DNA of 54,676 nt from Candidatus Parcubacteria bacterium. GTDB taxonomy: Bacteria; Patescibacteriota; Minisyncoccia; Phycocordibacterales; Zambryskibacteraceae. A program made the position numbers and the translations under genes. The notes below the pieces were generated by a model, which was not told where the DNA came from, did no database searches, and was given only the letters and a program-made list of their open reading frames with translations. The DNA is taken from assembly GCA_019661895.1 (NCBI GenBank), contig JAIFWO010000002.1, positions 1-54,676 on the forward strand. Direction: 5' to 3'. The stretch's first letter is position 1. Each line of letters begins with the position of its first letter. Below are positions 36,469 through 54,676 of the stretch, piece by piece.

Positions 36469-39400
36469 GTTTCAAGCGCCTTTCCATCTCAGTGTTGCTC
36501 TTGTCGGTGATCTTCTCACCGCTTAGCCTCTTTGCGCAGGAGATGTCTTCAGGTGGCTACGCTATACAAAGTGATAGCGTAAACTTCGCAGGAGGAAAAA
36601 GCTCCTCAGCTTCCTACAATGTCGAAGATACTGCCGGCGAGATTGCCACCGGCCCTTCAGCAAGCGCGAGCTACAGTTTGAAAGATGCTGGATACCAAAG
36701 CACGACTGGTCCAGTGACGACTCCAGACACTTCGGCGCCGTCGACTCCCGCCAATGTGAATGCTACGGCGGTGTCCTCGGCCAGTATTGAAGTTACCTGG
36801 GACGCTTCGACAGACAATGTCGGGGTGGACAGCTATCGCATATACCGAGACGCGGTGCTCGTTGCCGATGTGGCCATCTTCCCAAGAGATTTTGTCGATA
36901 CTGGCCTAACCCCAGACACCCTCTACGCATATAACGTCTCGGCGGTCGATGCCGCCGGAAATGAGTCAGCTCTCTCGGTATCAGCAAGCGCCCAGACGCT
37001 GGCTCTACCGGTTTCTGTCACGCCGGGATCCTCCCCCGGTTCTTCGTCAGGCCGTACTTTGCAGTTGACCAACTTCATCATAGTGCCGAGTGATACGAGC
37101 GCTCTGGTCTCCTTTACCACCTCAGTGCCTGTGACGACCAAAATAGAGTGGACCGCGTCCGGAGTGGTGCGCAGTGTTCTCAGCAATGAATTGAAGACCG
37201 AACACCACCTTACTCTTAACTCGCTCGTACCGGCGACCGGATACAATGTGCGCATTATTGTCACGACAGCGCTCGGAGTACAGACAACCTTTGAGGGTAT
37301 TGGATTCAGGACGCTCACGGTGGTAAACGTCGTCAGCCCGCTAAACGTCACAAACTTATCCGCTACTCATACAGAGAACGACATCGAGCTTGCCTGGTCC
37401 TTGCCGAAGGATCCTTCGATCGTGGGAGTGCGTCTGGTGCGCTCAACAAGTTTCTATCCGACGTCGCCGGATGACGGGAAAATAATTTTCGAAGACTTTA
37501 ATGGCGGCAAGGCTCTAAACTTCTCCGATACAGACGTGGTGGTGGGAAAGACTTATTACTACGCGATCTTTACCAAAGACATCTCGGGCAACTTTTCCTC
37601 TGGGGTGGTGGCGCATGCGAGCATCCCGCTTCCAGGAGAGCCGGTCGCTACGACCACTCCGCTCGACAATCTGCCTGAAGCCGCTAACGTCGATCCGGCC
37701 ATTGCCGCCCTCGTCACGAAAGACTTCCTCTTTATCCAAGATGGAGACAGCTTGCCTGTATCCGGTGACACGGTCACTATAAACGGCAACAAGAATTTGA
37801 CGGTCGCGCTCAAGTATTACCACCTGCCGGAGGTCTTGAAGACCGTGGCAGTGACTCTGGTGGGATGGGAGAACGGAAGTCCAAAATCCTTCACTTTCCT
37901 TTTGCGCGCCAATCGCGACAAGACTCGTTATGAGGCAACTATCGGTGCTCTGGTGGTGGGAACGTATGGCTTGAAGATCACCGTCATCGACTTCAAGAAT
38001 CAAGGCTTGAAAAAGATCGCCGGCACGCTCGTCGCGGGTGAGAACCTAGAGGCAGCTGCGCAAGAGATTTCTGGTAAGGACATAATGGTAGTCCTCGGCG
38101 TCGCTCTCCTCATATTGTTGGCGGTCTTCGGCAACTGGTTACGCAAATACTTCCTTAGGCGCCGCCGATTTGCTCGGGCGGTCATGCCGGTATTGTTTGC
38201 GGTGTTCCTCTCCGGGATCTTGGCTGCCTCTGTCTTGGCCCAGACATTTAATGCCAGCTTCAATCCTGAAATAAATTATCAAGGAAGGCTCACTGATACG
38301 AGCAATACTCCAGTCGCTGACGATTCGTACAATATGCGCTTCAAGCTCTACACCACTTCGACTGGGGGAGCGCCAATTTGGACTGAGACGGATTCTCTAA
38401 GCGATACGGTGACAGTTTCCTCAGGACTCTTCTCGCTTATGCTCGGTTCGACGACCGCGCTCTCGGGGGTGGACTTCAATCAGACTTTATACCTTTCGGT
38501 AGAGATCGGCGGTACCTCGACTGTACCTGTGTGGGATGGAGAGATGAGCCCAAGAAAGGTGCTTGGCGCGGTGCCTGCGGCATTTGTCTCAGACACACTC
38601 GACGGCCTTGATTCGACGCAGTTTGTCAGAAGCGACGCTACCTCGACCATTGCTTCCTCGTCCTCACAAACACTCCTAACTATCAATCAGACTGGTACAG
38701 GAAACCTTTTGGATATTCAGAAGTCCGGTGTCTCTCAACTTACGGTCGGTGGAACTGGGATAATCTTCACCAACTCCACCGGTACCTCTGCTACCACCAC
38801 TAATCTCTTCGCTACCACCGCCTCCACCACCAACTTCTTCGGAGCTGGACTTAGTACATGTAATAGTGCCGGTAATGCTCTGACCTACAACGGGGCGGGG
38901 AAGTTTGGCTGTGGATCTTTCACTACTGCGGCCTCTTCCACGCTTCTAGCAGACAACAATACCTTCAGCGGTGCTAACACCTTCTCACAAACTATCACTG
39001 GTTCCATCTCCGGTAACGCCGGCAGTGCCACCGTTCTCCAAAATGCTCGTACCATTAACGGCACCTCCTTCAACGGTACGGCCAACATCACGATCATGGC
39101 GGCTTCGTCCACTTTACTCGCAGACAATAATACCTGGACGGGAGGAAATATCTTTGGTAATGCCACAACGACAAATGCCACCACGACCTCTCTGTTTACC
39201 ACAAACGGCACTCTCACAAATCTTTTGTATACGACGGCTAACGGTGGAGCTATTACCTCGACTGGTCTTGGAAGCTTCGCCAATCTTTTTGCCTCTGGAT
39301 CAACGACGCTCCAAAACTTCACTGGTCTTAATTCAACGACGACCAATGCTACGACCACATCGATCTTTAGTGCTATTGCTTCTTCGACCAATCTTTTCTC

Positions 39401-42400
39401 GGCGGCGGCAAGGTTGGGTGCGCTGACCTTGGGAAATATTATAGGCACCACGCAGTGTCTCCATGTTGATACTAACGGAGTAGTCTCTGGTACTGGAGTG
39501 GAGTGCGGTAGCGGTTCTGGCTCCGTCACCTCAGTCTCGAACGTAGATGGTACACTCACCATTTCTCCCACCACTGGAGCAGTCGTTGCCTCACTTAATC
39601 TCGGCACAGGGAATGTCTGGACAGCCGCTTCGACCACCTTTGTAAACGGCGTCACTCTCGGTCGCTCGACTACTACTAACGCCACCACAACAAACTTTTT
39701 TGCCACTACTGCATCCACTACCAACCTCTCAGTCGCTAATACTATTCAAGGATCGGTCTCGGGTAATGCCGGTACGGCAACAGCTCTTCAAAATGCACGT
39801 ACTATTAACGGTACCTCCTTCGACGGCACGGCCAACATCACGATCACGGCGGCTTCGTCTACTCTTCTGGGAGATACTAATACATGGACTGGGGACAATG
39901 TCTTCGGCAACGCCTCCTCTACTAACTTCTTTGCCACTACGGCAAGTTCCACCAATCTCTTCTCCACTGCTCTGACCACCGGCCTCATCACTTCCGGTCT
40001 TGTGAATGGCCAAACAATCTCAAGCGCCGCCAACTTTACCGGCACCCTTACCACCTCGGGTCTCGGCACGTTTGGCAATCTCCTCACTACAGGCTCCTCG
40101 ACGCTCCAAAACTTTACGGCTCTTAACTCCACCTCTACAAATGCGACAACGACGTCATTATTTGCTTCTACGGCTTCTTCAACAAATCTCTTTAGCTCCA
40201 GCGGCAACATCGGTCTTCTAACCATAGGCAACTCCACCTCATCTAACGCTACTTCCACCAATTTCTTTGCCACTACAGCAAGTTCAACGAATCTCTTCTC
40301 AACAAGTTTAAATACAGGCCTTATCACCTCCGGTAACGTTAACGGCCAGACCGTAAGCTCTGCGGCTAACTTCACGGGAACTGTTACCGCCACGGGGGGC
40401 CTCACCACGCTCTCCAATCTCTTGCTTGCTGGCTCGACAACGCTTCAGAATCTGACCTTCGTTAATGCCACTGGTAGTGCTGCTACGACCACGAATTTGT
40501 TTGCTACCAGTTTGACGGCAGGAACGCTCAAGACCACGAGCACTGCTACTATCGGCGGGAGTCTCTTTATCAGTACAGTGCTCAACTGTAATTCCTCATC
40601 ACAATCTCTCCAAACAGACGGGTCTGGTATTGTGTCTTGCGGAACTATAACCGGAGGCGGTGCATCCGTTGGTGGCGGCTGGGCCTCGCTCGCTCCAAAT
40701 ATCGTGAGACTCTCGACGACCACCGATCTTGTCGGTGTCGGCACAACCAGTCCATATGCCAAAGTCTCGATTAACTCTGGCGCCCAAGCTACGACCACCT
40801 TGGCGCTTGTGCCGGTCTCTGGTCAGACGGCTAATATCATAGATATATACGACATCTCCAGTAACCTCTCGAGCGTCTTTACCTCTGGGGGACGATTGGG
40901 CATCGGCTCGACTTCGCCATCATCAATGCTTACTGTCGGCGGGGAAGCATATATAGACGGTGATCTCACCGTCTCTGGAGCGAGCGGTTTACAAAACTTT
41001 ACGGCTCTTAACTCCACCTCGACCTCCGCCACCACTACCAACCTCTTCGCCACTACAGCCTCTACCACGAACTTCTTCGGGGCCGGACTTAGTACTTGCT
41101 CAAGCGCTGGGAACGCCTTGACATATAATGGATCAGGGAAGTTCGGATGCTCGACCATTACCGCGGCTTCCACCACTCTTCTTGTAGACAATAACGCCTT
41201 TACCGGAGCCAATACTTTTGTTGGAGTGACGATTACCCGTTCCACTACCACTCAAGCTACCACTACAAACTTCTTCTCAACTACAGCTTCAAGTACGAAC
41301 CTCTTTAGTACGAACGGCAACATTGGCCTTCTCACTATAGGCAACTCCACCTCATCCAACGCCACTTCCACTAACTTCTTTGCTACTACCGCAAGTTCCA
41401 CTAATCTCTTCTCCACCACTCTTACCACTGGCCTTATCACTTCTGGGCTTATCAATGGCCAAACAATCTCTTCCGCCGCCAACTTCACCGGCTCACTTAC
41501 GGCTTCAGGCTTAGGTACATTTGGTAATCTCTTAACTTCAGGATCTTCTACTTTCCAGAACTTCACTTTCGTTAATGCTACTGGCACCTCGGCTACCACC
41601 ACCAATCTCTTTACCACCACAGCTTCCACTACCAACTTCTTCGGAGCCGGGCTTAGTACATGTAATAGTGCAGGCAATGCTCTTACTTACTCTGGAGGCA
41701 AGTTTGCTTGCTCGAGCGTTACCGCCGCCTCCTCTACGCTCCTCGCAGACAACAACACCTTCACAGGAGCAAACATCTTCAACAACATCACTCGCTCCAC
41801 CACTACTTCCGCTACTACTACCTCGCTCTTCTCTACTACCGCATCATCTACCAATGTCTTCTCCACCAATGGCAATATTGGCCTCTTAACCATAGGCAAC
41901 TCCACCTCATCTAACGCTACTTCCACTAACTTCTTTAGTACTACAGCAAGTTCCACCAACCTCTTCTCCACTGCTCTCACCACTGGTCTCATTACCTCAG
42001 GCAACGTGAACGGCCAGACGATCTCTTCCGCAGCTAACTTCACTGGTACTCTCACTGCTTCTGGCTTAGGAACATTTGGCAATCTTCTCTCCTCTGGTTC
42101 TTCCACCTTCCAAAACATCACCTTCTTGAATTCAACGAGTACCAACGCCACCACGACTTCTCTCTTCACTGCCACCGCCTCCACCACCAACCTCTATGTG
42201 GCCACGGGAGCAGGCTGTCTCCAGGTAGATTCGGCCGGCAAGGTCTTCTCCATTGGCTCTGCTTGTGGTACAGGAAGCGGCTCTGTGACCTCCGTCTCAG
42301 ATAATGGAGGAGGTACGCTCACTATTTCTCCTACCACTGGAGTGGTGTCCGCTTCTATTAATTTGGGCAATTCAAACGTCTGGACGGCCGCTTCCACAAC

Positions 42401-45400
42401 GTTTGTGAATGGAGTGACTTTGGGCCGCTCGACCACTACCAACGCGACTACTACCTCTCTCTTCTCCACTACAGCCTCGAGTACAAATCTTTTTAGTACG
42501 AATGGTAACATCGGTATCCTGACCATAGGTAATGCAACTTCTTCTAACTCATTCTCAAGTACCGCCTCAAGTACTAACCTCTTCTCCACCAATGCCAGCT
42601 TGGGACAGGTAACACTTGCTAACGCCACCTCGACCACTCTCTTCTCCACCGTTGCCTCCTCTACCGATCTCTTCTCTACCGCTCTCACCACTGGCCTCAT
42701 CACTTCCGGCAACATTAACGGCCAGACTATCTCTTCCGCAGCCAACTTCACCGGTACTCTTACTGCTTCTGGCTTAGGAACCTTTGGCAACCTCTTGTCT
42801 TCGGGATCATCCACTTTACAGAACTTCACCTTCGTTAATGCTACTGGCACCTCGGCTACGACCACGAATTTCTTTGCCACTACGGCTTCATCAACAAACT
42901 TGTTCGCGGCTGCCTCTCAGTTAGGATCCGTCACAATCAATAGTATTACCGGCTCCACTCAATGTTTGCGCGTCGACTCGACCGGCAAGATATCCGGCAC
43001 CGGATCAGATTGTTCAACGGCGGGCAGTAGCGGCTCGGTCAATCTTGGTAATCAAGGCCAGGTGCCTTATTACAGCGCCAATGCCACCACGACTCTCTCA
43101 GCCACCTCTACGATATTTATCGCTACCAATGAGAATGTCGGTATAGGCGACACCAATCCGCAAAACAAATTGAGCGTGAATGGAAGCGTGGCCATTACGG
43201 CGGGCAATACCTATAAGTACGACGGCATCAATATCGCCGCTGGAGAAAAGACCTTGAAGAATTACTTCTTCGGCAATGCCGGGAATATAAGCGCCTTGGG
43301 TAGTGACAACGTCGGGGTAGGCGATCTCGCTCTCTTTACCATCGCTGGAGTCTCGGCTGGAGCCTCTTCGAAGAATACGGCCGTGGGCTCGTGTGCTCTC
43401 TGTAATCTTGGCTCTTCGGGAGTTTCCTCGGCCAACACGGCTCTTGGATACCATGCTGGTGCTGGGGTATTGGCTGCCGGTGCCGACGACAACACGGCTG
43501 TAGGAAACCTGACTATCACCGACTCGGTTGGATCACGTAACACCGCCCTCGGATCCGAAGCGCTCTCTCTATTATATGGAAACGGCGGGAGTGCCAATGT
43601 GAAGAATAATACCGCAGTCGGCTTCCAGGCCCTCTCGACCGGGTCTAACTCGATAGCGTCCTCGACGGCTCTTGGTTATATGGCTGGATTCGCAAGCACT
43701 GGATCAGATGATCTCTTCCTTGGCGCTCAGGCAGATGCACTTTCGGGTGGGCTTACTAACGTCACGGCCATCGGTGCCATGGCCAAAGCTGGCAGCTCGA
43801 ACTCATTTATTCTTGGAGGGACAGGAAGCTATGCTGTGAACGTGGGTATCGGCCTTACCACTCCCTCGGCGCGCCTTACCGTAAAAGGTACAAGCGGTCA
43901 GACCAATGATCTTGTGCAAGTAGCCTCGTCGACCGGTACCGCCCTCTTTACCATAGACAGCGTTGGCAATATTACCGCGAGCGGACTTGCTACATTCTCA
44001 GATCTTACTACGACCGGTGTGGCCACATTGCCGAGTATCCTCTTCACCAACGCCACCGGCACCTCGGCTACCACGACTAACTTCTTCTCCACTACCGCCT
44101 CCACCACCAACTTCTTCGGAGCCGGGCTCTCTACTTGTAGCAGTGCCGGCAATGCTCTGACCTACAACGGGGCAGGGAGGTTTGCTTGCGGATCTATTAC
44201 CACTGCGGCTTCTTCAACCCTCCTTGCAGACAACAATACTTGGACAGGTTCCAACATCTGGACAGCCGCTTCTTCAACATTCGTCAACGGAGTGACTCTT
44301 GGTCGCTCCACCACTACTTCAGCTACCACCACCTCTCTCTTCTCCACCACTGCCTCCTCAACCAATCTCTTCTTCACCACCGCTTCCGGAGGCAACCTTA
44401 CCTCATCGGGTATTGGTACCTTTGCCAACCTTCTCTCCAATGGATCATCGACTCTCCAAAACTTCACCTTCGTTAACGCTACCGGCACCTCGGCAACAAC
44501 GACTAACATCTTTGCTACGACCGCCTCCTCTACTAATCTTTTTGCCACCACAGAAAACATCGGCTTCTCACTCATTGGCCGTTCTACTACTACGGCAGCT
44601 ACTACGACTAATCTCTTCTCCACTACCGCCTCAAGTACAAATCTCTTCTCCACCGCTCTGACCACTGGTCTCATTACCTCCGGCAACGTGAATGGCCAAA
44701 CAATTTCTTCCGCTGCCAACTTTACGGGTACTCTAACTGCGACTGGTGGTTTAACCACGCTCTCGAATCTTCAGGTAAACGGGTCTTCGACGCTCCAAAA
44801 CTTCACTGGTCTTAATTCAACGACGACGAATGCGACGTCTACAAGCCTCTTTACCACCACAGCCTCTACCACCAACTTCTTCGGGGCTGGACTTAGTACT
44901 TGCTCAAGCGCTGGGAACGCCCTAACTTACGATGGTGCAGGGAAGTTTGCCTGTGGATCTATTACCACAGCAGCTTCCTCCACTCTCTTAGTTGATAACA
45001 ATGCCTTCACTGGTCTCAATACATTTACGGATTTGAAGTTAGTCACTCGCTCCACTACTACGGCCGCAACAACTACGAATATCTTTAGTACCACCGCTTC
45101 AAGCACCAACTTCTTTAGTACGAATGGAAATATCGGTCTATTAACAATAGGTAATTCCACTTCTTCAAATTCTACTTCTACTAATTTCTTCTCCACTACA
45201 GCAAGTTCGACGAATCTTTTTGCCACCATTCTTAATACTGGAAATATCACATCGACTGGCCTCATTACCGCAGCTAATCTCTTGGCTACAGGTTCATCTA
45301 CTCTCCAGAACTTCACAGGTCTTAATTCAACGACGACGAATGCTACATCTACCAATCTCTTCGCCACTACGGCTTCCACCACCAACTTCTTCGGCGCTGG

Positions 45401-48400
45401 GCTCTCAAGCTGTTCAGGCGCTACCAACGCTCTAACCTACAACGGGGCAGGGAGGTTTGCTTGCGGCTCTATTACCACCGCCGCTTCTTCAACACTTTTG
45501 GCAGACAATAATGCCTTCTCGGGTAACAATTCCTTTGCCAATCTCTTGGTGAATGGCTCTTCCACTTTGCAGAACTTCACCTTTATAAATGCTACTGGTA
45601 CTTCGGCTACGACCACTAATCTCTTCTCTACCACAGCAAGTTCAACAAATCTTTTCTACACTACAGCTTCTGGTGGTAACGAAACACTTTCTGGATTACT
45701 CACCGCTTCAAACATTCGAGCCAACGGCTCCACCACTCTCCAGAACTTCACGGGAGTTAACGCTACTACCTCAGGAGCCACAACAACTAACGCATTTGCA
45801 ACCACTGCTTCCTCAACTAACCTCTTTAGTACGAACGGCAATATCGGACTTCTTACAGTAGGCAATTCAACATCTTCCAACGCCACTTCCACTAACTTCT
45901 TTAGCACTACGGCAAGTTCCACTAATCTCTTCTCCACCACTCTTACCACTGGCCTTATCACTTCTGGGCTTATCAATGGCCAAACAATCTCTTCCGCCGC
46001 CAACTTCACCGGCTCACTTACGGCTTCAGGCTTGGGAACATTTGGGAATCTTCTCTCCAATGGCTCGTCTACACTTCAAAACTTCACCTTTATAAACGCC
46101 ACTGGCACTTCTGCTACCTCAACGAACTTCTTTGCAACCACCGCTTCAAGTACAAATCTCTTTGCCACAAACGAAAACATTGGCTTCTCACTCATTGGCC
46201 GTTCTACTACTACCGCTGCCACTACCACCTCTCTATTCGCTACCACTGCCTCTACTACCAGCTTCTTCGGGGCTGGTCTATCTACCTGTTCTGGTGCTAC
46301 TAATGCCTTGACCTACGATGGAGCGGGGAAGTTTGCTTGCGGTTCGATTACCACCGCCGCTTCTTCTACACTTCTGGCGGACAATAATACCTTCACCGGA
46401 GCAAATATCTTCAATAACATCACCCGCTCTACCACCACTTCAGCTACCACCACCAATCTCTTTAGTACCACTGCTTCAAGCACCAATCTCTTTAGTACTA
46501 ATGGAAATATCGGTCTGTTAACAATAGGAAATTCAACGAGTACTAACGCCACTACGACAAATACATTCTCCACTACAGCTTCCTCAACCAACCTCTTCTC
46601 AACAAGTTTAAATACTGGCTTGATCACTTCTGGGCTTATCAATGGCCAAACAATCTCTTCCGCCGCCAACTTTACGGGTACACTTACCACTTCAGGTCTC
46701 GGCACGTTCGGCAACCTTCTCTCCAATGGATCATCAACTTTCCAAAATATCACCTTCGTTAATGCTACTGGTACCTCGGCTACGACCACTAATCTGTTTG
46801 CGACGACGGCTTCTACCACCAACTTCTTCGGAGCCGGACTTAGTACATGTAATAGTGCATCGAACGCATTGATATACGATGGAGCGGGGAAGTTTGGCTG
46901 TAACACAATCTCTGGTACCGCCGCCTCCTCCACCCTCCTCGCAGACAACAACACCTTCACCGGAGCAAACATCTTCAACAACATCACTCGCTCCACTACT
47001 ACTAATGCCACCACTACTACCATCTTCTCTGGTACTGCCTCTTCCACCAACTTGTTCTCTACTAATGCTAACCTCGGTCTCGTCACAATAGGCAACTCCA
47101 CCTCATCTAACGCCACTACCACCAACCTCTTCTCTACCACAGCAAGTTCAACCAATCTCTTCTTCACCACCGCTTCCGGAGGCAGCCTTACCTCATCGGG
47201 TATTGGTACCTTTGCCAACCTTCTCTCCACAGGCTCTTCCACTCTCCAAAACTTTACAGGTCTTAATTCCACTACCACCAACGCTACTACCACTACTATC
47301 TTTGCTACCACGGCTTCGAGTACCAATCTCTTCGCTACGAATGCCAACCTCGGTCTCGTCACTCTTGGTAGATCTACTACCAGCGATGCAACAACCACCA
47401 ACCTCTTCGCCACCACAGCTTCTACCACTAACTTCTTCGGGGGAGGACTATCAACATGCACCGGCTCAAATGTGCTTCAGTGGAGCGCTGGCAAATTCTC
47501 ATGTGCTGCATCCGCTAGCTCGGCTTCCTCAACCCTCCTCGTAGATAATAACGCCTTTACCGGAGCCAATACCTTTGTGGGAGTGACGATTACTCGTTCT
47601 ACCACCACTTCTGCCACTACTACCTCGCTTTTCAGTACCACGGCTTCTTCTACAAATCTCTTCTCCACCAATGGCAATATCGGACTTCTTACAATAGGCA
47701 ACTCAACTTCTTCTAACTCCACCTCCACCAACCTCTTTGCCACTACCGCAAGTTCGACCAACCTCTTTTCTACGGCTCTGACCACAGGCCTTGTCACTTC
47801 CGGTCTTGTGAATGGCCAAACAATCTCAAGCGCCGCCAACTTCACTGGCACCCTCACTGCCACTGCCGGCTTGACCACTCTTTCAAATCTTTTGGTAACA
47901 GCCTCTTCTACTGTTGGTAACGGCACTCAAGCCGGAGGATTGACTATCAATGGCCAAGCCACTACTACCAATCTTTTAGTGACTGGGTCATCGACACTCC
48001 AAAACTTTAGTTTTGTGAATGCTACTGGTACTTCTGCAACAACAACGAACTTCTTTAGCACCACAGCTTCCTCGACCAATCTCTTCTCGACCTCACTTAA
48101 CACTGGTTTAATTACTTCCGGCAACGTGAATGGCCAAACCATAAGTTCTGCTGCCAACTTCACCGGGACTCTTACTGCGACTGGTGGCCTGACCACTTTG
48201 TCCAATCTTTTCCTCTCTGGCTCAACCACTCTCCAGAACTTCACTGGTATAAATTCCACTACCACCAATGCCACGACTACCTCACTTGCTATTAGAAGTA
48301 TTACTGGTTCGACGCAGTGTTTGCATGTAGATACCAATGGTTTGGTTACCGGCACAGGCAGCGATTGCGGAGCAAGCAGCGCCTCAACCGACAAATTCGC

Positions 48401-51400
48401 CACTTCGACCACGCAAAACTTCACCATCACGCCTAACTCAGCAGTGGCCCTTGTCATTGGCCGCAATGCTACCACCACGAGATCGTTGTTGGAAGTAAAT
48501 GGCACCACCACCGCCACTAACTTCGTGGCCACTTCGACGACAGCCTTTAGTACCTTCGCAGGCAATGTTGGTATTGGCACAACCTCTCCTTACAGGACAC
48601 TCTCAGTAAATGGATTTATTAATACTGACGGAACAACTGGTGGTTATCAGATAGACGGCGTGACCGCTCTGCAAGCTAGTTCGACAAATTTCGGGACATT
48701 CATCGGTCTTGGGGCAGGAACTTCCACCAGCGCTACAGGTTTCCGCAACACCTACGGAGGATATTGGGCTGGACAAGGAGAGGTAAATGGCGATGATAAC
48801 GCCAGCTTCGGCTACCGGGCGCTTGCTATAGGCAGCGGTAGTACCAACTCTGCCTTCGGCTCGTTCGCCTTGGAGAACAGCAGTGGCAATACCAACTCGG
48901 CATTAGGATATGCCGCTTTGCAAGCGAACACAGGAGGAATAAGCAACACTGCCGTAGGCGCCCAAGCTCTCACCGCCAACCTGAACGGATCAGAGAGTGT
49001 GGCAGTGGGCTATCAGTCTCTCGCGCTCTTCACCGGCACCGATCCCAATACCGCGCTAGGTACTTGGTCGCTCAATAAGACGACCAGCGGCGGGGGAAAT
49101 ACAGCCACAGGATATACTTCCTTGTTCAACAACACCACCGGATTTTCAAATACCGCCATAGGTCAGGATGCCCTTAACGCGGTTACCACCGGTTCTTTGA
49201 ACACGGCGGTTGGTCGAAATGCTGACTCGAAGAATCGCACCGGCACCGCCAATACAACACTCGGCTACAATGCCTTACTTGGAGTAACAGCCAACTCTCA
49301 CTCTTCATCCACAGCTGTCGGATACGGGGCGGGGTCTGCCGTGACCACCGGCAATGGCAATACCCTTCTCGGCTACAAGGTTGGAGATAACATCACGACC
49401 GGGAGTAACAACATTGTCATCGGCTACGACATCGACTCACCAACAGCCTCCAACTCGAACACTCTCAACATTGGCAACCTCCTCTTCGGTACTGTACTTG
49501 ATGGAACGGGAACCACCATATCAAGCGGCAATATAGGCATCGCCTCTTCCACTCCGTGGGGCAGGCTCTCGGTCGAGATGGATACCATCGATCCTGCCTT
49601 CGTAATTGCTAACCAAGGCTCTTCGACGCCTTCCTTATATGTAGGTGGGGTAAACCAAAATGGCTTCGTGGGCTTCGGTACCACCACCACTCCTTCGCTG
49701 GCTCGCATTATTATCGATAATACCATCGGCTCTGATGCTGGATCGGGTATTGCCGTGGCCGGAGAGCACCAGATCTACACCTTCAACCCTTCGACGACGA
49801 ATACAGTCCAAGTTGGTAACCGCACGATTGTGCAGAACTCTCCTGTCGGTGCTACGGCCACCAACACTGCCGTTGGTACACTCATTCGCATGATAGATAA
49901 TAGTGGTATCTCAAACTTGGTCCGTGGGCTTGAGGTAGTGGCGAGCGCTGGTAATACCACCTTCGGAGTCAATACTGGCATCCGTGGTTCTGGGCACACC
50001 TTCGGCGTTCAAGGTATTACCACCGGGCTAGCTGGCGGCACCTCAACACCGGCTGCCATCTATGGTGAGAACTCTGGTACGACTCAGGGAGATATCTTGC
50101 GCCTCTATACTTCTACTATGACCACGGCGACCTCGGTGGCGAGCTTCTACCAAGAGATCTCAACCTTTACCGGCACTGGCCTGACTATGAACTTCGGCAA
50201 GGGTGGAGGAACATTCACGGGTAAGTTCGTGGACTTTAAGGTCAATGATAATACTCGCTTCAAGGTCGAGTATGGTGGTACCACGACGATTGGTCAATTG
50301 AGTCAAACCACCACTCAAGCTGGTATCCAAATTGGATACGGAGGACTTTGTGTTGATAACGATGGAGCATGTACCGCTACTACCACTGGCCGCGTCACCG
50401 CGCGTGAGTATATCACCGCCGGTGCCGACCTCGCGGAAGCTTACTACTCATCGGAGTCTCTCACTCCGGGAGATATCGTGTTTACTAAGGGTAAGTTCTA
50501 CGTTGGCAAGGCCTCCTCCTCGACCGATCCGGTCATTGGAGTGGTCTCGACTAGGCCCGGCATGACACTCGGCACGGGCGAGGTGAAGTTCTCAAGCTTA
50601 AACGAATATCCAATTGGTCTCTCGGGCCGCGTGCCAGTCAGGCTCTCCACGGAGAATGGAGTGATAAATGTCGGAGACAAGATCGCCCTCTCGAGCATTG
50701 CTGGCGTGGGTATGAAGTATGATCCGACCAAGCCGGGCACTATCATCGGTATCGCCCTTGAGGCCTTCGACGGTACTGATGCACTCTCCGAGGGAACGGT
50801 GGAGGTGAAGACTCAAAAAGTTTCCTCAGGTTCCACATGCACGACGACGGAAAGTTCCGGCGACAAGCAGGCCTGGGGCGGTGGAGACAGCGAGGGCACT
50901 ACGACGCACACCACTAGTACCGGGACAGAGACAAGCTGTACGCAAAATGAGGTCACCCTCATTCCCGATGCCGGGACAGCCGAGTCGAGCACGACCAATG
51001 CGGGCATGACGGTCAAGGTAGGTAGCGCGCTGGTCTTCCTCGGTATCGAACGCCCGACCCTTACAGCTAGCCAGGGCTCAATGACTCTGGCACAAGGGGA
51101 TTATAGTCTCGAGAATCACAGCATCTTAAACGTAAAGAGTATCGCCAGCGCCAACGGTAAGTGGTCAATAAACGAGGATGGGGAATTGGTCGTGGAATCC
51201 ATCCGCGCTAAACGAGCCAACTTCTCGGACAGTGTGGAAGTCGGTACCAAGGAGATGCCGACGGGCCTCACGCTCTACGACTCTGCCACCGGCGCACCGT
51301 ATTGCTTGAGTATGAACAATGGTGCGATCTCTTCGGCCCCTGGACTATGTAAGGCCGCCGCTCCGACAGCCAGTTTGACTCAAACTACTATCATTAGCTC

Positions 51401-51701
51401 CACTACCACTCCTACATCAACCACATCATCAAGCACGCCAATAGTCTCTACGACCAGCACAAGTACCGCCACTACGACGAGCCATACCACAAGTACTGCT
51501 TCAAGCACGCCAAACACTACTTCGACCCCGACGCTCTCGACCACGTCGGAGGTCGGGGAGCCGACCGGAAGCGTCGGCTCCAGTACTCCTGCGACCACCA
51601 CGAGCACTAGCACGCCGAGCCTCACCGAGTCTACCAACTCCACAGCTTCATCCTCTCCTCTAACTACTGAAACTTCATCGTCCACGCCACCGACGACGTG
51701 A
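36465..51701 (+). CDS. giant (5078 aa) secreted/surface fibre-adhesin-like protein: signal peptide, FN3 domains, internal TM hairpin, tail-fibre-like repeat array, YadA-head-like tracts and a mucin-like tail
   Basis: A single uninterrupted 15,237-nt ORF. The signal peptide is MSFKRLSISVLLLSVIFSPLSLFA. One FN3 domain reads PSTPANVNATAVSSASIEVTWDASTDNVGVDSYRIYRD...YAYNVSAVDAAGNES. The INYQGRLTD... domain, NARTINGTSF(N/D)GTANITI motifs and NTA(V/L)G repeats are described in the findings. Confidence 0.85.
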   Translation: MSFKRLSISVLLLSVIFSPLSLFAQEMSSGGYAIQSDSVNFAGGKSSSASYNVEDTAGEIATGPSASASYSLKDAGYQSTTGPVTTPDTSAPSTPANVNATAVSSASIEVTWDASTDNVGVDSYRIYRDAVLVADVAIFPRDFVDTGLTPDTLYAYNVSAVDAAGNESALSVSASAQTLALPVSVTPGSSPGSSSGRTLQLTNFIIVPSDTSALVSFTTSVPVTTKIEWTASGVVRSVLSNELKTEHHLTLNSLVPATGYNVRIIVTTALGVQTTFEGIGFRTLTVVNVVSPLNVTNLSATHTENDIELAWSLPKDPSIVGVRLVRSTSFYPTSPDDGKIIFEDFNGGKALNFSDTDVVVGKTYYYAIFTKDISGNFSSGVVAHASIPLPGEPVATTTPLDNLPEAANVDPAIAALVTKDFLFIQDGDSLPVSGDTVTINGNKNLTVALKYYHLPEVLKTVAVTLVGWENGSPKSFTFLLRANRDKTRYEATIGALVVGTYGLKITVIDFKNQGLKKIAGTLVAGENLEAAAQEISGKDIMVVLGVALLILLAVFGNWLRKYFLRRRRFARAVMPVLFAVFLSGILAASVLAQTFNASFNPEINYQGRLTDTSNTPVADDSYNMRFKLYTTSTGGAPIWTETDSLSDTVTVSSGLFSLMLGSTTALSGVDFNQTLYLSVEIGGTSTVPVWDGEMSPRKVLGAVPAAFVSDTLDGLDSTQFVRSDATSTIASSSSQTLLTINQTGTGNLLDIQKSGVSQLTVGGTGIIFTNSTGTSATTTNLFATTASTTNFFGAGLSTCNSAGNALTYNGAGKFGCGSFTTAASSTLLADNNTFSGANTFSQTITGSISGNAGSATVLQNARTINGTSFNGTANITIMAASSTLLADNNTWTGGNIFGNATTTNATTTSLFTTNGTLTNLLYTTANGGAITSTGLGSFANLFASGSTTLQNFTGLNSTTTNATTTSIFSAIASSTNLFSAAARLGALTLGNIIGTTQCLHVDTNGVVSGTGVECGSGSGSVTSVSNVDGTLTISPTTGAVVASLNLGTGNVWTAASTTFVNGVTLGRSTTTNATTTNFFATTASTTNLSVANTIQGSVSGNAGTATALQNARTINGTSFDGTANITITAASSTLLGDTNTWTGDNVFGNASSTNFFATTASSTNLFSTALTTGLITSGLVNGQTISSAANFTGTLTTSGLGTFGNLLTTGSSTLQNFTALNSTSTNATTTSLFASTASSTNLFSSSGNIGLLTIGNSTSSNATSTNFFATTASSTNLFSTSLNTGLITSGNVNGQTVSSAANFTGTVTATGGLTTLSNLLLAGSTTLQNLTFVNATGSAATTTNLFATSLTAGTLKTTSTATIGGSLFISTVLNCNSSSQSLQTDGSGIVSCGTITGGGASVGGGWASLAPNIVRLSTTTDLVGVGTTSPYAKVSINSGAQATTTLALVPVSGQTANIIDIYDISSNLSSVFTSGGRLGIGSTSPSSMLTVGGEAYIDGDLTVSGASGLQNFTALNSTSTSATTTNLFATTASTTNFFGAGLSTCSSAGNALTYNGSGKFGCSTITAASTTLLVDNNAFTGANTFVGVTITRSTTTQATTTNFFSTTASSTNLFSTNGNIGLLTIGNSTSSNATSTNFFATTASSTNLFSTTLTTGLITSGLINGQTISSAANFTGSLTASGLGTFGNLLTSGSSTFQNFTFVNATGTSATTTNLFTTTASTTNFFGAGLSTCNSAGNALTYSGGKFACSSVTAASSTLLADNNTFTGANIFNNITRSTTTSATTTSLFSTTASSTNVFSTNGNIGLLTIGNSTSSNATSTNFFSTTASSTNLFSTALTTGLITSGNVNGQTISSAANFTGTLTASGLGTFGNLLSSGSSTFQNITFLNSTSTNATTTSLFTATASTTNLYVATGAGCLQVDSAGKVFSIGSACGTGSGSVTSVSDNGGGTLTISPTTGVVSASINLGNSNVWTAASTTFVNGVTLGRSTTTNATTTSLFSTTASSTNLFSTNGNIGILTIGNATSSNSFSSTASSTNLFSTNASLGQVTLANATSTTLFSTVASSTDLFSTALTTGLITSGNINGQTISSAANFTGTLTASGLGTFGNLLSSGSSTLQNFTFVNATGTSATTTNFFATTASSTNLFAAASQLGSVTINSITGSTQCLRVDSTGKISGTGSDCSTAGSSGSVNLGNQGQVPYYSANATTTLSATSTIFIATNENVGIGDTNPQNKLSVNGSVAITAGNTYKYDGINIAAGEKTLKNYFFGNAGNISALGSDNVGVGDLALFTIAGVSAGASSKNTAVGSCALCNLGSSGVSSANTALGYHAGAGVLAAGADDNTAVGNLTITDSVGSRNTALGSEALSLLYGNGGSANVKNNTAVGFQALSTGSNSIASSTALGYMAGFASTGSDDLFLGAQADALSGGLTNVTAIGAMAKAGSSNSFILGGTGSYAVNVGIGLTTPSARLTVKGTSGQTNDLVQVASSTGTALFTIDSVGNITASGLATFSDLTTTGVATLPSILFTNATGTSATTTNFFSTTASTTNFFGAGLSTCSSAGNALTYNGAGRFACGSITTAASSTLLADNNTWTGSNIWTAASSTFVNGVTLGRSTTTSATTTSLFSTTASSTNLFFTTASGGNLTSSGIGTFANLLSNGSSTLQNFTFVNATGTSATTTNIFATTASSTNLFATTENIGFSLIGRSTTTAATTTNLFSTTASSTNLFSTALTTGLITSGNVNGQTISSAANFTGTLTATGGLTTLSNLQVNGSSTLQNFTGLNSTTTNATSTSLFTTTASTTNFFGAGLSTCSSAGNALTYDGAGKFACGSITTAASSTLLVDNNAFTGLNTFTDLKLVTRSTTTAATTTNIFSTTASSTNFFSTNGNIGLLTIGNSTSSNSTSTNFFSTTASSTNLFATILNTGNITSTGLITAANLLATGSSTLQNFTGLNSTTTNATSTNLFATTASTTNFFGAGLSSCSGATNALTYNGAGRFACGSITTAASSTLLADNNAFSGNNSFANLLVNGSSTLQNFTFINATGTSATTTNLFSTTASSTNLFYTTASGGNETLSGLLTASNIRANGSTTLQNFTGVNATTSGATTTNAFATTASSTNLFSTNGNIGLLTVGNSTSSNATSTNFFSTTASSTNLFSTTLTTGLITSGLINGQTISSAANFTGSLTASGLGTFGNLLSNGSSTLQNFTFINATGTSATSTNFFATTASSTNLFATNENIGFSLIGRSTTTAATTTSLFATTASTTSFFGAGLSTCSGATNALTYDGAGKFACGSITTAASSTLLADNNTFTGANIFNNITRSTTTSATTTNLFSTTASSTNLFSTNGNIGLLTIGNSTSTNATTTNTFSTTASSTNLFSTSLNTGLITSGLINGQTISSAANFTGTLTTSGLGTFGNLLSNGSSTFQNITFVNATGTSATTTNLFATTASTTNFFGAGLSTCNSASNALIYDGAGKFGCNTISGTAASSTLLADNNTFTGANIFNNITRSTTTNATTTTIFSGTASSTNLFSTNANLGLVTIGNSTSSNATTTNLFSTTASSTNLFFTTASGGSLTSSGIGTFANLLSTGSSTLQNFTGLNSTTTNATTTTIFATTASSTNLFATNANLGLVTLGRSTTSDATTTNLFATTASTTNFFGGGLSTCTGSNVLQWSAGKFSCAASASSASSTLLVDNNAFTGANTFVGVTITRSTTTSATTTSLFSTTASSTNLFSTNGNIGLLTIGNSTSSNSTSTNLFATTASSTNLFSTALTTGLVTSGLVNGQTISSAANFTGTLTATAGLTTLSNLLVTASSTVGNGTQAGGLTINGQATTTNLLVTGSSTLQNFSFVNATGTSATTTNFFSTTASSTNLFSTSLNTGLITSGNVNGQTISSAANFTGTLTATGGLTTLSNLFLSGSTTLQNFTGINSTTTNATTTSLAIRSITGSTQCLHVDTNGLVTGTGSDCGASSASTDKFATSTTQNFTITPNSAVALVIGRNATTTRSLLEVNGTTTATNFVATSTTAFSTFAGNVGIGTTSPYRTLSVNGFINTDGTTGGYQIDGVTALQASSTNFGTFIGLGAGTSTSATGFRNTYGGYWAGQGEVNGDDNASFGYRALAIGSGSTNSAFGSFALENSSGNTNSALGYAALQANTGGISNTAVGAQALTANLNGSESVAVGYQSLALFTGTDPNTALGTWSLNKTTSGGGNTATGYTSLFNNTTGFSNTAIGQDALNAVTTGSLNTAVGRNADSKNRTGTANTTLGYNALLGVTANSHSSSTAVGYGAGSAVTTGNGNTLLGYKVGDNITTGSNNIVIGYDIDSPTASNSNTLNIGNLLFGTVLDGTGTTISSGNIGIASSTPWGRLSVEMDTIDPAFVIANQGSSTPSLYVGGVNQNGFVGFGTTTTPSLARIIIDNTIGSDAGSGIAVAGEHQIYTFNPSTTNTVQVGNRTIVQNSPVGATATNTAVGTLIRMIDNSGISNLVRGLEVVASAGNTTFGVNTGIRGSGHTFGVQGITTGLAGGTSTPAAIYGENSGTTQGDILRLYTSTMTTATSVASFYQEISTFTGTGLTMNFGKGGGTFTGKFVDFKVNDNTRFKVEYGGTTTIGQLSQTTTQAGIQIGYGGLCVDNDGACTATTTGRVTAREYITAGADLAEAYYSSESLTPGDIVFTKGKFYVGKASSSTDPVIGVVSTRPGMTLGTGEVKFSSLNEYPIGLSGRVPVRLSTENGVINVGDKIALSSIAGVGMKYDPTKPGTIIGIALEAFDGTDALSEGTVEVKTQKVSSGSTCTTTESSGDKQAWGGGDSEGTTTHTTSTGTETSCTQNEVTLIPDAGTAESSTTNAGMTVKVGSALVFLGIERPTLTASQGSMTLAQGDYSLENHSILNVKSIASANGKWSINEDGELVVESIRAKRANFSDSVEVGTKEMPTGLTLYDSATGAPYCLSMNNGAISSAPGLCKAAAPTASLTQTTIISSTTTPTSTTSSSTPIVSTTSTSTATTTSHTTSTASSTPNTTSTPTLSTTSEVGEPTGSVGSSTPATTTSTSTPSLTESTNSTASSSPLTTETSSSTPPTT
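41391..41512 (+). repeat. 122-bp perfect direct repeat, copy 1
   Basis: Identical by eye to 45912-46033 (gcaagttccactaatctcttctccaccactcttaccactgg...cggcttcaggctt). Confidence 0.8.
45912..46033 (+). repeat. 122-bp perfect direct repeat, copy 2
   Basis: Identical by eye to 41391-41512, 4.5 kb upstream in the same ORF and the same frame. Confidence 0.8.
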
Positions 51702-51714
51702 TAATTATTAATAT

Positions 51715-54676
51715 ATGAAAACATTACTTAAAAAAACATTTCGCCAGCTTCTCGTCGTCGTGCTCATGGTCGCGTCCTCTCTCTCCGTCCTCCCGGCAGA
51801 TGTTTTTGCAGCTAATGTGCAGATCCGCCAGGAAATAAATATTACCGATGCGTATCTCGGCTCGGCCTCAGGCGCATATGCTACCTCCTCAGAGATTATC
51901 CAAATTGATCCGACGAAATATACCAGTGCGACGTACTACTTCGAAGTGGTGGCCTCGAGCACTACTGCCGTGAGTTCAAATATTTATCTGAAGAATGCCA
52001 CCTCTTCACAGACAGTGGCCACCATCAACTTCTCGAACTCCAATACGTACACACGCTACCGCTCCACGGCCTTCACGGCGCCAAGCGTGGCTACCGAATA
52101 CAAGGTGGTGGTGGGCAACGAAGCGGTGCAGAAGGGTGTCATTGCCTCGCGCGTGATTATCTTGCAAAGTGCTGCCTCAATTACTAATACCGAAACGCAG
52201 ATCGAGATAGGTTCCGCTACTACCTCGGCTTCCAACACCACCACTCTTCCGCTTCAGAGTCCAAAGTATTGGTCCTACAATTCTTCCAAGTGGGATGGTT
52301 CGCCAACCTTTTATGTCGAGGCAACGTATAAAGATAATCCCGTTGCCTCTTCCACCATCTACAGCGTCTCGGCTACTGCTACTCCGACATTCTACACCTA
52401 CATTGGCTCTGTGGGAGTCGGTTATGTCGTGGGAGAAGCGTGGGGAGGTGGCGGAGGCGGAGATGGCGTATCGAGTGCCGCTACCATCGGAGGTGGAGGT
52501 GGTGCCGGAGGAACGTATGCCAGATCCACTACTAGTGCAATCACCGCCGGAAGTACCAACATCATCGGGGTCGGCCGTGGGGGAGCGGAAGGTCTGGCGG
52601 CGGCCGCTACCGCCAGTAGCACCGTGACGATGGCGAGTGGGGTGCTTGTCCGAGGACAAGGGGGTGAGGGGGCGACAAGTAATGCTGGAGGCGTAGCCAG
52701 TACAGCCTCCTCTATTGGAAGTGTTCTAAATGCTGGGGGAAGTGGAGGAGCTGGTGATGATACGGGAGATACTGGAGGAGCCGGCGGAGGTGCGGGCGGG
52801 CCTGATGGAGCTGGTGTGACTCCTGCTAACGCAACGAACGGCGTGCCTGTCGGTGGAGGGGCTGGAAATAACTCCCTAGGAGGCGCGGGCGGAGCCGCAG
52901 GCACGGGGGCCGATGACGTTTGCGATACGGAAAATGGAAAGGCGGGTGCAAATAATGTCTTGGGAGGCGGAGGCGGAGGAGGTGGGGACGGCGACACGTC
53001 TAGCATCTGTACGGGAGGTGCCGGAGGCCGACCAGGCGGAGGCGGAGGCGGTTCGGACGAGGGCACGGGCACTAGCTTGGTAGAAATCGGCGGGCCAGGC
53101 CAAGTGAAGATCACGGAATATGTAGGCATGGTCGGCATCGCCTTGGAAGAAGATAATGGCAGCTTCGGCTCGTGGACCTTCAAACAGCAAATTATCACTG
53201 GTGGTAAAACCTCGACCACTACTGAGCGCATACGTTCGTCAGCCTTCACTCCGACCAATGGGAGGCATTATCGCATCACTGCTTCTACCACAAACGCCAC
53301 CGCCTCCTACGATATCTACAACGCCAAGATTGTGGTGGATCAGGGTCCCACAAGCTTCACCGCTCTCAACGCTACCGGCGCTACAAAAAATTGGTGGGGC
53401 GTCTCGGTCAACTCCACCAACGGCGATGTCTACGCGGCTGTTCAGAGTGGCGACATCTATAAGCAAACCGCTGGCTCTGGCAGCTTTAACGCGTTGAATG
53501 CCACCGGCGCTACAAAAAGTTGGTGGGGTGTCTCGGTCAACTCCACCAACGGCGATGTCTACGCGTCTGTTTCGAATGGCGACATCTATAAGCAAACCGC
53601 TGGCTCTGGCAGCTTTAACGCGTTGAATGCCACCGGCGCTACAAAAAGTTGGAGGGGTGTCTCCGTCAACTCCACCAACGGCGATGTCTACGCAACTGTC
53701 TTTGGTGGCGACATCTACAAGCAGACGGCTGGGACAGGCAACTTCACCGCTCTCAACGCTACCGGCGCTACAAAAAGTTGGTGGGGTGTCTCGGTCAACT
53801 CCACCAACGGCGATGTCTACGCGGCTGTTCAGAATGGCGACATCTACAAGCAGACGGCTGGGACCGCCCTCACCCTCCTCGAACCTCAGTATCTTCTTTC
53901 AAATACTAAATTAGCCACTGGTACAGGACTGCAAAATTATCTTGGGTACTGGGATTCAACAGAGTGGGCAGGGGTAAGTAATACATACTTACACCAAATG
54001 GATGCAAGTGCTTCCTCAGCCTCGGCCGCAGGCATTTACACTACCGCCAATGCGCTAGTGGTGGGTTCGACAGTAACGAGTCCAAACAATTCCGCCACCT
54101 CTTCGTCCATGACCATGCCGGCGACAGGGAACTTGGATGTGAAGGCCACCACCAACAACAACGATGTCTACGCCAACCGTATCTTGGCCCAAGTAGCAAT
54201 CCTTACGAACGATGTCACGAGCGCGACGGTGACACCGGGAGATACTCTTAACTCTTTGGCTTGGACGAATCCGTCAGATGCAAGTTTGAGCAAAGTCATG
54301 GTACTCGCTTCTACTTCCGCCATCACCTTTACCCCCGTTAATGGCACTACGTATTCAACAAGCACTCTTAGTGGTGCCTCGCGTGTAGCCTGTTATGGTC
54401 TGCAAGCTTCCTGTACCGACACGAGTCTAAGTAATGGTACCGCCTATCATTACAAAATATTTACTTTAAGCAGTAACGGCTACTGGTCTACGCCTGGCGT
54501 CACACCCACCGGTTCCCCAGCCACGCCTGTGGCGTCAGCCTCCACCGCTCTCTCAGACACCACCGATCCTAGTAACGCTACTCTCGCTCCTAGCGCCTCA
54601 GCTACCATGGGAGGAGCCTTCACCTTCCAGACTACCACTGGTACGGATGTGGTGACGGCTGCCGTGGTTGGACTCG
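51715..54676 (+). CDS. secreted glycine-rich/propeller-repeat/FN3-like surface protein (3' end beyond the window, absent from the supplied ORF track)
   Basis: My hand translation from ATG 51715 is open to the last base of the window. The signal peptide is MKTLLKKTFRQLLVVVLMVASSLSVLPADVFA. There are six poly-Gly runs, four 43-aa repeats and a C-terminal FN3-like segment (LAWTNPSDASLSKVMVL...GTAYHYKIFTLSSNGYWS). Confidence 0.8.
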   Translation, partial: MKTLLKKTFRQLLVVVLMVASSLSVLPADVFAANVQIRQEINITDAYLGSASGAYATSSEIIQIDPTKYTSATYYFEVVASSTTAVSSNIYLKNATSSQTVATINFSNSNTYTRYRSTAFTAPSVATEYKVVVGNEAVQKGVIASRVIILQSAASITNTETQIEIGSATTSASNTTTLPLQSPKYWSYNSSKWDGSPTFYVEATYKDNPVASSTIYSVSATATPTFYTYIGSVGVGYVVGEAWGGGGGGDGVSSAATIGGGGGAGGTYARSTTSAITAGSTNIIGVGRGGAEGLAAAATASSTVTMASGVLVRGQGGEGATSNAGGVASTASSIGSVLNAGGSGGAGDDTGDTGGAGGGAGGPDGAGVTPANATNGVPVGGGAGNNSLGGAGGAAGTGADDVCDTENGKAGANNVLGGGGGGGGDGDTSSICTGGAGGRPGGGGGGSDEGTGTSLVEIGGPGQVKITEYVGMVGIALEEDNGSFGSWTFKQQIITGGKTSTTTERIRSSAFTPTNGRHYRITASTTNATASYDIYNAKIVVDQGPTSFTALNATGATKNWWGVSVNSTNGDVYAAVQSGDIYKQTAGSGSFNALNATGATKSWWGVSVNSTNGDVYASVSNGDIYKQTAGSGSFNALNATGATKSWRGVSVNSTNGDVYATVFGGDIYKQTAGTGNFTALNATGATKSWWGVSVNSTNGDVYAAVQNGDIYKQTAGTALTLLEPQYLLSNTKLATGTGLQNYLGYWDSTEWAGVSNTYLHQMDASASSASAAGIYTTANALVVGSTVTSPNNSATSSSMTMPATGNLDVKATTNNNDVYANRILAQVAILTNDVTSATVTPGDTLNSLAWTNPSDASLSKVMVLASTSAITFTPVNGTTYSTSTLSGASRVACYGLQASCTDTSLSNGTAYHYKIFTLSSNGYWSTPGVTPTGSPATPVASASTALSDTTDPSNATLAPSASATMGGAFTFQTTTGTDVVTAAVVGL
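53353..53868 (+). repeat. 4 x 129-bp in-frame tandem repeats (43-aa units)
   Basis: The units start at 53353, 53482, 53611 and 53740. The consensus is (S/N)F(T/N)ALNATGATK(N/S)WWGVSVNSTNGDVYAxVxxGDIYKQTAGxG. Confidence 0.85.

Follow-up and report, generated by a model that had tools for sequence, protein, structure and literature searches.

The end of contig JAIFWO010000002.1, a sequence from a Candidatus Parcubacteria bacterium, raises the question of whether a long frame absent from its list of open reading frames (ORFs) is a gene and, if so, what kind of protein it encodes. The window, meaning the whole stretch of DNA that was analysed, comprises positions 1 to 54,676 of this contig, and the frame in question occupies 51715-54675 on the plus strand, directly downstream of a giant gene. 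The organism belongs to the candidate phyla radiation (CPR, or Patescibacteria), in which host recognition and attachment are largely unknown beyond type IV pili. The unlisted frame is a real gene, complete at its 5' end and truncated at its 3' end. It is judged with moderate confidence to be a CPR gene for a multi-domain protein of fibre- or adhesin-like character, which is exported through Sec and carries a tumour necrosis factor (TNF)-like jelly-roll with a glycine-rich region of the type found at phage fibre tips.

The coding sequence comprises 987 codons and is cut by the contig end, with base 54676 left over; its start is the first ATG to follow an in-frame TAA (51709-51711). The longest contig recorded for the protein's own cluster has 54676 nt, so the window is the contig in full. 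An independent translation and a six-frame count revealed no stop in its own frame over 51715-54676, as against 22-74 in each of the other five, in agreement with an earlier note, made from the sequence alone, which had claimed at least 987 open codons. The same note placed the frame 13 nt past the stop of the giant gene, as the coordinates confirm (TGA at 51699-51701, ATG at 51715), and rightly attributed its omission from the ORF track to the want of a stop within the window, since the lister passes over any ORF that is still open at an end. An ORF track that drops end-truncated ORFs has in this way concealed a gene of ~3 kb. Glycine-rich DNA does yield other long open frames, with up to 281 codons in the other strands and frames here, and this would be in keeping with a chance or non-functional frame, whether a pseudogene or an artefact of the composition of GGN-rich DNA. 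However, 987 codons are free of stops, hundreds of homologues are found with protein-level conservation across all non-glycine domains, and the AlphaFold2 (AF2) models are confident; the homologue searches and the conservation effectively refute a chance frame, the probability of which is negligible. The ORFs that were listed in this region are off-frame shadows, as had been proposed: the translation of the minus-strand ORF 52422-53258 is proline-rich, its glycine codons being read in reverse, and homologue conservation backs the plus frame only.

The domain list of the earlier note is essentially retained, with refinements in the placement of the polyglycine region, the number of jelly-rolls and the strength of one fibronectin type III (FN3) assignment. 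All features of the protein lie on the plus strand. It opens with a putative Sec signal peptide (aa 1-32, 51715-51810, cleavage VFA/AN), which reads MKTLLKKTFRQ + LLVVVLMVASSLSVL + PADVFA/AN. On inspection, the leader has an n-region with K2, K6, K7 and R10, an h-region spanning L11-L26 and small residues at -1 and -3 before AN, and AF2 predicts a helix over residues 2-23; comparable hydrophobic leaders are present in homologues. A signal peptide ending in ADVFA/AN, as had been suggested and likened to two sites in the giant protein, is therefore plausible, but one of these counterparts, SVLA/QT, is internal, as indicated by hydrophobic stretches at ~aa 539-561 and 582-590 of the giant protein. 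Regarding the designation as a surface protein, the leader makes export plausible, and a location on the surface is presumed. The whole protein has only four Cys, and Cys403 and Cys432 are invariant among homologues, which fits an extracytoplasmic protein.

Three jelly-roll beta-sandwiches, here called D1, D2 and D3, follow the leader. D1 (aa 33-153, 51811-52173), which is all-beta in the AF2 model with a predicted local distance difference test (pLDDT) score of ~90-97, gave no match in a Pfam search, and D3 (aa 720-830, 53872-54204, LLEPQYLL...NNDVYANRILAQV, pLDDT ~95) is likewise without a Pfam model. D2, of the TNF-like type, comes in two halves. The first, D2a (aa 155-242, 52177-52440), consists of AF2-predicted strands of high pLDDT and contains a motif, TETQIEIGSATT..PKYW, that is almost invariant in homologue alignments; the second, D2b (aa 463-545, 53101-53349), likewise consists of predicted strands, and the end of D1 shows a match to its motif RxRSxxFTP..YR..YNAKIVVDQ. 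Two related beta-sandwich segments had been recognized before, and their kinship stands, as hhalign relates D1 to D2 (95%, E 2.7e-8) exactly over these two segments, between which BLASTP produced no alignment. The jelly-rolls, however, number three rather than two, with D3 showing weaker hhalign links to D1 (66%) and D2 (70%).

Between the two halves of D2 lies a polyglycine-rich ('brush', Gly_rich_2-type) insert (aa 243-462, 52441-53100), delineated by its glycine runs and a sub-threshold match to Pfam PF21722. It contains 80 Gly among 221 residues (36%), distributed over 12 runs, and column conservation reaches 8-9/10 within the runs and 2-4/10 between them. This region had been taken for a domain flanked by two sandwiches, a placement that has to be abandoned: the first of the two segments is the upstream D1, and the glycine-rich region, according to the models, is inserted within a single TNF-like jelly-roll, with confident strands on both sides (aa 159-243 before and aa 463-543 after). 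The insertion is also deduced from two phage proteins in IMG/VR, L009 and L011, in which D2 is uninterrupted. L009, a whole protein of 548 aa, consists of D1, D2 and D3 and aligns to residues 37-205 (44% identity, E 2e-33) and 711-831 (48%, E 2e-24) of the query, and L011 (1831 aa, of which the first 201 residues were translated) contains D1 and an uninterrupted D2 junction. Both start at an IRQE motif, and neither has a leader or a glycine-rich insert.

The structural models give the clearest view of what this module resembles. In the full-length AF2 model, pLDDT exceeds 85 for aa 33-545 and 720-830 and falls below 50 over the repeats and the FN3-like part described below, and a separate model of D2 with the glycine-rich region (aa 150-550) has a pLDDT of 88 and a predicted template modelling score (pTM) of 0.83. 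The glycine-rich region itself (aa 243-462) is modelled with a pLDDT of ~90, yet almost no helix or strand is assigned to it by DSSP, a combination that is compatible with a lattice of polyglycine-II or polyproline II (PPII) helices. When the separate model was compared by Foldseek with 350,542 chains of the PDB, the first rank was taken by the fibre of cyanophage Pam3 (E 3.7e-4), which is the top match for the full-length model too, and ranks 2-3 by the tail-tip chains Qa and Qb of mycobacteriophage Bxb1 (E ~4e-3). Entries for ALK's TNF-like plus glycine-rich region occupy ranks 4-8 and further positions (E 0.06-1, TM ~0.2), at least 10 of them within the top 25, followed by TNF-family ligands, CBM6 and the TNF-like lectin PLTL. 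With the full-length model, TNF-like lectins (PLTL, BC2L-C-Nt) and CBM36/CBM6 were matched over ~130 residues; since such matches are weaker with D2 and its insert alone, they must stem from D1 or D3. In BFVD, 74 matches were obtained at E ≤ 1e-3, mostly phage proteins named 'glycine-rich domain-containing', minor tail or tail fibre proteins, together with collagen-like proteins of giant viruses.

Profile searches point in the same direction. The collinear homologues P0002 and P0043 score 37.2 and 43.7 bits against PF21722 Gly_rich_2, above its gathering threshold of 24.3 bits, and about half of 100 homologues carry a precomputed match to this family. A profile of the family, searched against PDB sequences, retrieved RemZ as the best match (E 4.5e-4), at the start motif EAWGGGGGG...GGGGGGAYA, and the Pam3 fibre weakly (E 0.2); a single-sequence search of PDB sequences found nothing, nor did an NCBIfam search with the protein, and PHROGs returned only a weak match to the repeats. 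On the strength of the models, D2 with its glycine-rich insert appears to be the same type of module as the fibre tips of phages (Pam3 gp24, the Bxb1 'brush' domain and S16 gp38) and the TNF-like plus glycine-rich region of ALK. This assignment and the phage-borne relatives had both been missed by the earlier note.

The protein belongs to a large family. A word-indexed search yielded about 100 homologues, the best with 71% identity, and an exhaustive HMMER search with aa 33-545 among 1.84 billion cluster representatives retrieved 619 at E ≤ 1e-3, of which 409 reached E ≤ 1e-10 and 149 reached E ≤ 1e-30; none of these proteins bears an informative name. Typical full-length relatives have ~850-865 aa, others up to 1.2-1.7 kb. 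Throughout the family, one alignment of which took in 62 sequences, D1, D2, the glycine-rich insert and D3 are conserved, and the slot between D2 and D3 and the part after D3 are variable, with a column identity of ~0.6 in the N-terminal block versus 0.38 in the downstream domains. In other members, the slot is filled by a 170-aa sandwich or by full propeller domains (SdiA-regulated, SGL). P0002 (1647 aa) is the closest homologue; over aa 5-985 of the query the two are collinear, with 45% identity. In P0013 (1069 aa), an extra domain of ~380 aa stands between the leader and D1. The D1-D2 block also occurs internally in several giant proteins (2000-4500 aa), some of which hold multiple copies (e.g. 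P0296), indicating that the block is a mobile module.

Members of this family are shared between CPR chromosomes and phage-like elements. The phage-borne homologues show 51-54% identity over 80-85% of the query, and phage and cellular copies are ~50% identical in the block of D1, D2 with its glycine-rich insert, and D3. In the phage-like contexts (L001/L002, L003, L025 and L026), a collagen-like gene of 250 aa and a fibre gene of 1100-1830 aa, in some cases with Peptidase_S74, typically precede the family member of 860 aa, which is followed by small ORFs; HNH, YopX, GP3_package, Acb2/Tad1, RNA ligase, RecA or SLT genes are found nearby. The 860-aa members on these phage-like contigs and, in L001 and L003, the upstream fibre genes encode N-terminal hydrophobic leaders or anchors, which are unusual for virion proteins. 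A profile scan with the D1-D2a alignment detected relatives on 16 viral contigs of IMG/VR. The only PHROGs match among the neighbouring genes of these was a weak one to a tape-measure protein, upstream of one relative; PHROGs being nearly uninformative here, the viral nature of the contigs rests mainly on the IMG/VR classification and on gene content elsewhere. On the cellular side, P0002 (context L005) lies between a gene for an S74-containing protein upstream and genes for TPR, MurJ, LepA and CysRS downstream, another member resides on a 254-kb contig with CTP synthase and a sigma factor (L004), and P0025 (L024) is located between FtsK and alanine racemase. A contig scan of metagenome-assembled genomes (MAGs) added relatives at at least two loci, in Saccharibacteria and WWE3.

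Genes for SecA and GatB lie in the window itself, as do those for several glycosyltransferases, a sugar epimerase and a Wzy-like/TPR protein. GatB shares 70-76% identity with proteins from MAGs of Parcubacteria, Patescibacteria and Minisyncoccia, and this identity and the gene content together mark the contig as a fragment of a CPR chromosome. The giant gene (36465-51701, plus strand, 5078 aa) is a probable partner of the new gene. As the 13-nt gap between them is short and has no promoter-like or terminator-like site, the two genes are probably co-transcribed. The giant protein has a Sec-like leader (..SLFA/QE) and FN3-like units at aa 93-169, ~209-271 and 299-395, and a 99-aa segment of it (aa ~4513-4610) is 48% identical (E 2e-21) to the S74-containing protein that precedes P0002. 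Of eight contexts examined, chromosomal or phage-like, six have a large fibre-type gene directly upstream of the family member, and a seventh has a gene of 870+ aa two genes upstream; the fibre-type gene is immediately upstream, and often overlapping, in L001/L002, L003, L005, L025 and L026. From 35.7 kb onwards the contig holds three genes, namely the 35701-36468 ORF, the giant gene and the new gene, and in none of them did PHROGs find anything recognisably phage-like.

Several further observations concern this neighbourhood. The 35701-36468 ORF (plus strand, 255 aa) has a TTG start and overlaps the start of the giant gene by 4 nt; the N-terminus of its product resembles a helix-turn-helix of the excisionase/MerR type, one hydrophobic segment comes next, and no Pfam or PHROG family is matched. 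Just upstream of it, a promoter-like site, AGGACA-16-TATAAT, is present at 35668-35695. Within the giant gene, GC skew is strongly negative (to -0.37) over 40000-48000, which probably arises from Thr/Ser/Ala-rich repeats and not from replication. At the other end of the window, a 593-aa protein (3002-4783, plus strand) with weak matches to TrwB/VirD4-type proteins, the coupling proteins of type IV secretion, adjoins a glycosyltransferase/O-antigen-ligase-like (Wzy + TPR) cluster at ~4.8-27.8 kb.

The variable part of the new protein starts in the slot between D2 and D3. Here, four 43-aa repeats had been reported, and both the Tandem Repeats Finder (129-nt period, 3.8 copies, 89% matches, 53374-53861) and a motif search, which located four copies at exact 43-aa spacing, bear them out. 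The tandem repeats occupy aa 546-718 (53350-53868) and have the character of beta-propeller blades. The isolated repeat region matches PF20067 SSL_N (40.2 bits, cut-off 18.9) and, in four stretches, PF24127 DUF7395 (31.5 bits, cut-off 27). An enzymatic role, hinted at by the name SSL_N, was rejected, because the blade motif alone matches and nothing catalytic was found. P0002 has six copies versus the four here, and the AF2 model of the region is of low confidence; given that the copies are 89% identical and differ in number from P0002, either an assembly collapse or true copy-number variation is possible.

Beyond D3, the assignment of an FN3-like unit (aa 834-930, 54214-54504) is weak. Its proposed resemblance to the third FN3 of the giant protein is supported by BLASTP (32% identity to giant-protein aa 299-395, E 4e-5), but the match to PF00041 fn3 (15.5 bits, E 0.021, profile positions 16-80 of 84) is below the 25-bit cut-off, and the pLDDT of the unit is <50. 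The remaining stretch (54505-54675) reads as a linker rich in Ser, Thr and Pro, after which another domain begins and is cut by the contig end. P0002 runs ~570 residues past the equivalent point, which suggests that ~600 residues are missing here, and the complete protein is accordingly, from the length of this collinear homologue, probably ~1500-1650 aa long.

Taken as a Sec-exported fibre- or adhesin-like protein, the product probably binds a ligand on another cell, by analogy with the phage proteins and ALK, and may work together with the giant protein in the manner of a fibre shaft and its tip adhesin. In such a mechanism, export and leader cleavage would come first, after which the jelly-rolls would assemble, probably as trimers like other TNF-like domains. 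The conserved glycine runs would then pack into a rigid lattice of the polyglycine-II type, leaving the variable loops between the runs and the accessory domains, i.e., the four blade repeats and the FN3-like unit, to touch a ligand on the surface of the other cell. The giant fibre-like protein, whose gene is probably co-transcribed, may carry the product or act with it, comparable to the gp37 shaft and gp38 tip adhesin of phages.

A number of points weigh against this picture. The Foldseek template modelling (TM) scores are low (0.2-0.48) and the root-mean-square deviations large (8-16 Å), so that the class of fold is supported rather than a close structural match. Aa 225-480 of the query reach just 16.9 bits with PF21722 (E 0.0065), below the cut-off, even though the match spans positions 6-223 of the 226 in the profile, and the Pfam scan with the full-length query gave no match to this family. 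Neither Peptidase_S74 nor another known domain was detected in a search of the giant protein's last 600 aa, and the homologue P0025 (L024) is without a large upstream gene. An anchor, whether a sortase motif, a transmembrane segment or an S-layer-homology domain, is not visible, because the C-terminus lies beyond the contig end. Moreover, the module directly follows the leader in the window protein, in contrast to Pam3 gp24 and S16 gp38, where it forms the C-terminal distal tip. Most importantly, the N-terminal block is conserved and the C-terminal part variable, and the conserved end of phage fibres is usually the anchoring one, so the block could equally serve for docking. As conserved ends usually dock and variable ends bind, polarity is the main uncertainty.

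This polarity lends weight to an alternative in which the block of D1, D2 with its insert, and D3 docks on the cell's own envelope or on the giant protein, and the product is a structural component of the envelope or fibre, or a superinfection-exclusion decoy that takes up the receptor of related phage fibres, instead of an adhesin for another cell. The contrast in column identity between the block and the downstream domains would be expected of a docking element, it is exactly in this block that phage and cellular copies are ~50% identical, and the block is also found inside giant proteins. Arguing the other way, the glycine-rich module is the receptor-binding end in the characterised relatives (PMC9608196; PMC13243795), and the loops between the glycine runs vary, as expected of a specificity determinant. 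Docking is a serious alternative, though an improbable one overall. A different origin is implied if the gene belongs to a prophage, or a remnant of one, at the contig end and encodes a tail fibre or receptor-binding component of a virion. The fold resembles phage fibre tips, close homologues in phage-like contigs come after collagen-like genes and fibre genes of 1100-1830 aa, Peptidase_S74 being present in some of them, and relatives sit on the 16 IMG/VR viral contigs, one of them downstream of the weak tape-measure match. However, the window is chromosomal up to 35 kb (SecA, GatB), the three genes from there to the contig end yielded nothing phage-like with PHROGs, and both the giant protein and the new protein have Sec-type leaders, which the virion-type members of IMG/VR lack. 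P0002, in addition, is followed by TPR, MurJ, LepA and CysRS genes and not by phage genes, and P0025 stands between FtsK and alanine racemase. With leaders and cellular neighbourhoods of this kind in both the window and P0002, a prophage origin is unlikely.

The adhesin-like protein of a CPR cell thus stays the preferred reading, and a bolder extension of it may be formulated, albeit with considerable doubt: CPR cells may have adopted the entire receptor-binding apparatus of a phage, a giant fibre shaft with a tip protein that bears a TNF-like/polyglycine module, added Sec leaders and used it to attach to their hosts, with the genes still being exchanged with CPR phages. If this is true, a phage fibre shaft and tip would constitute the CPR's own host-attachment organelle, and the same module would set the specificity both between episymbiont and host and between phage and CPR.

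There is precedent for brush/Gly_rich_2 domains, for TNF-like plus glycine-rich modules and for their occurrence in secreted bacterial proteins (RemZ). What is new is the architecture of an uncharacterised family in CPR bacteria and phages, comprising D1, D2 with a glycine-rich insert, a variable slot and D3. The family holds several hundred sequence clusters without annotation, and no description of it was found in the literature on PF21722/Gly_rich_2 and on glycine-rich surface proteins of CPR bacteria. Its interest derives mainly from the sharing between cells and phages and from its relevance to CPR host attachment, for which the predicted Sec-exported protein, built on a recognition module of the phage-fibre/ALK type and encoded beside a giant fibre-like protein, is a concrete candidate. 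Because CPR chromosomes and phage-like elements share the family at ~50% identity, it should also be useful for linking phages to hosts and for studying the exchange of binding modules.

Among the known systems, Pam3 gp24 (PDB 7YPX/7YFW) provides the closest parallel. Besides an N-terminal helix and a TNF-like domain, it has a glycine-rich domain in which 12 Gly-rich motifs are counted, and its conserved stem carries a hypervariable distal tip that is proposed to bind the host receptor (PMC9608196). The window protein shares with it the TNF-like jelly-roll, ~12 Gly-rich motifs, conserved GGGGxGG runs and variable distal loops, and the pattern of conserved glycine runs and variable loops across the family is that described for Pam3 and S16. 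Pam3 gp24, on the other hand, has only 250-290 aa, no signal peptide, an N-terminal helical baseplate anchor and a need for the chaperone gp25, whereas the window protein has at least 987 aa, is predicted to be secreted, possesses two extra jelly-rolls and is encoded on a bacterial chromosome; the TM scores between the two reach only 0.27-0.48. A resemblance of Pam3 gp24 to S16 gp38 and to the ALK of C. elegans has been described (PMC9608196), and bundles of PPII helices like those in S16 gp38 and ALK occur both in the Pam3 fibre and in Bxb1 gp33/gp29 (PMC13243192). The domains termed 'polyglycine-rich' or 'brush' are considered to be antireceptors (PMC13243795). The brush domains of S16 gp38 and the Bxb1 tail tip (PDB 9D93) are comparable to the present insert in that a glycine-rich lattice is regarded as the receptor-binding element; unlike the window protein, they belong to virion proteins without leaders, and S16 gp38, which has a beta-helix instead of a TNF-like domain, is not in the top 50 Foldseek matches.

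Outside phages, the TG supradomain of ALK/LTK sets a Gly-rich polyglycine-II lattice in a TNF-like sandwich and binds the ligand in these receptors, but ALK is a metazoan receptor kinase, and no sequence similarity between it and the window protein was detected. Photorhabdus PLTL, the N-terminal domain of Burkholderia BC2L-C and CBM6/CBM36 are jelly-rolls of ~130 residues that match D1 or D3 (E 3e-3 to 0.1, TM ~0.5). They are trimeric and glycan-binding but show no sequence similarity, and the match may reflect the common jelly-roll fold only. RemZ (PDB 8GL8), a type IX secretion system (T9SS) substrate in Flavobacterium johnsoniae, has the same PF21722 start motif, (V)EAWGGGGGG...GGGGGGGAYA. 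It differs in being T9SS-secreted in Bacteroidota and in being without D1 and D3, and the match indicates that surface proteins secreted by bacteria already include the Gly-rich domain. At the level of gene order, T-even phages encode a large fibre gene followed by an adhesin gene, an arrangement that is paralleled by the giant gene and the gene at the contig end.

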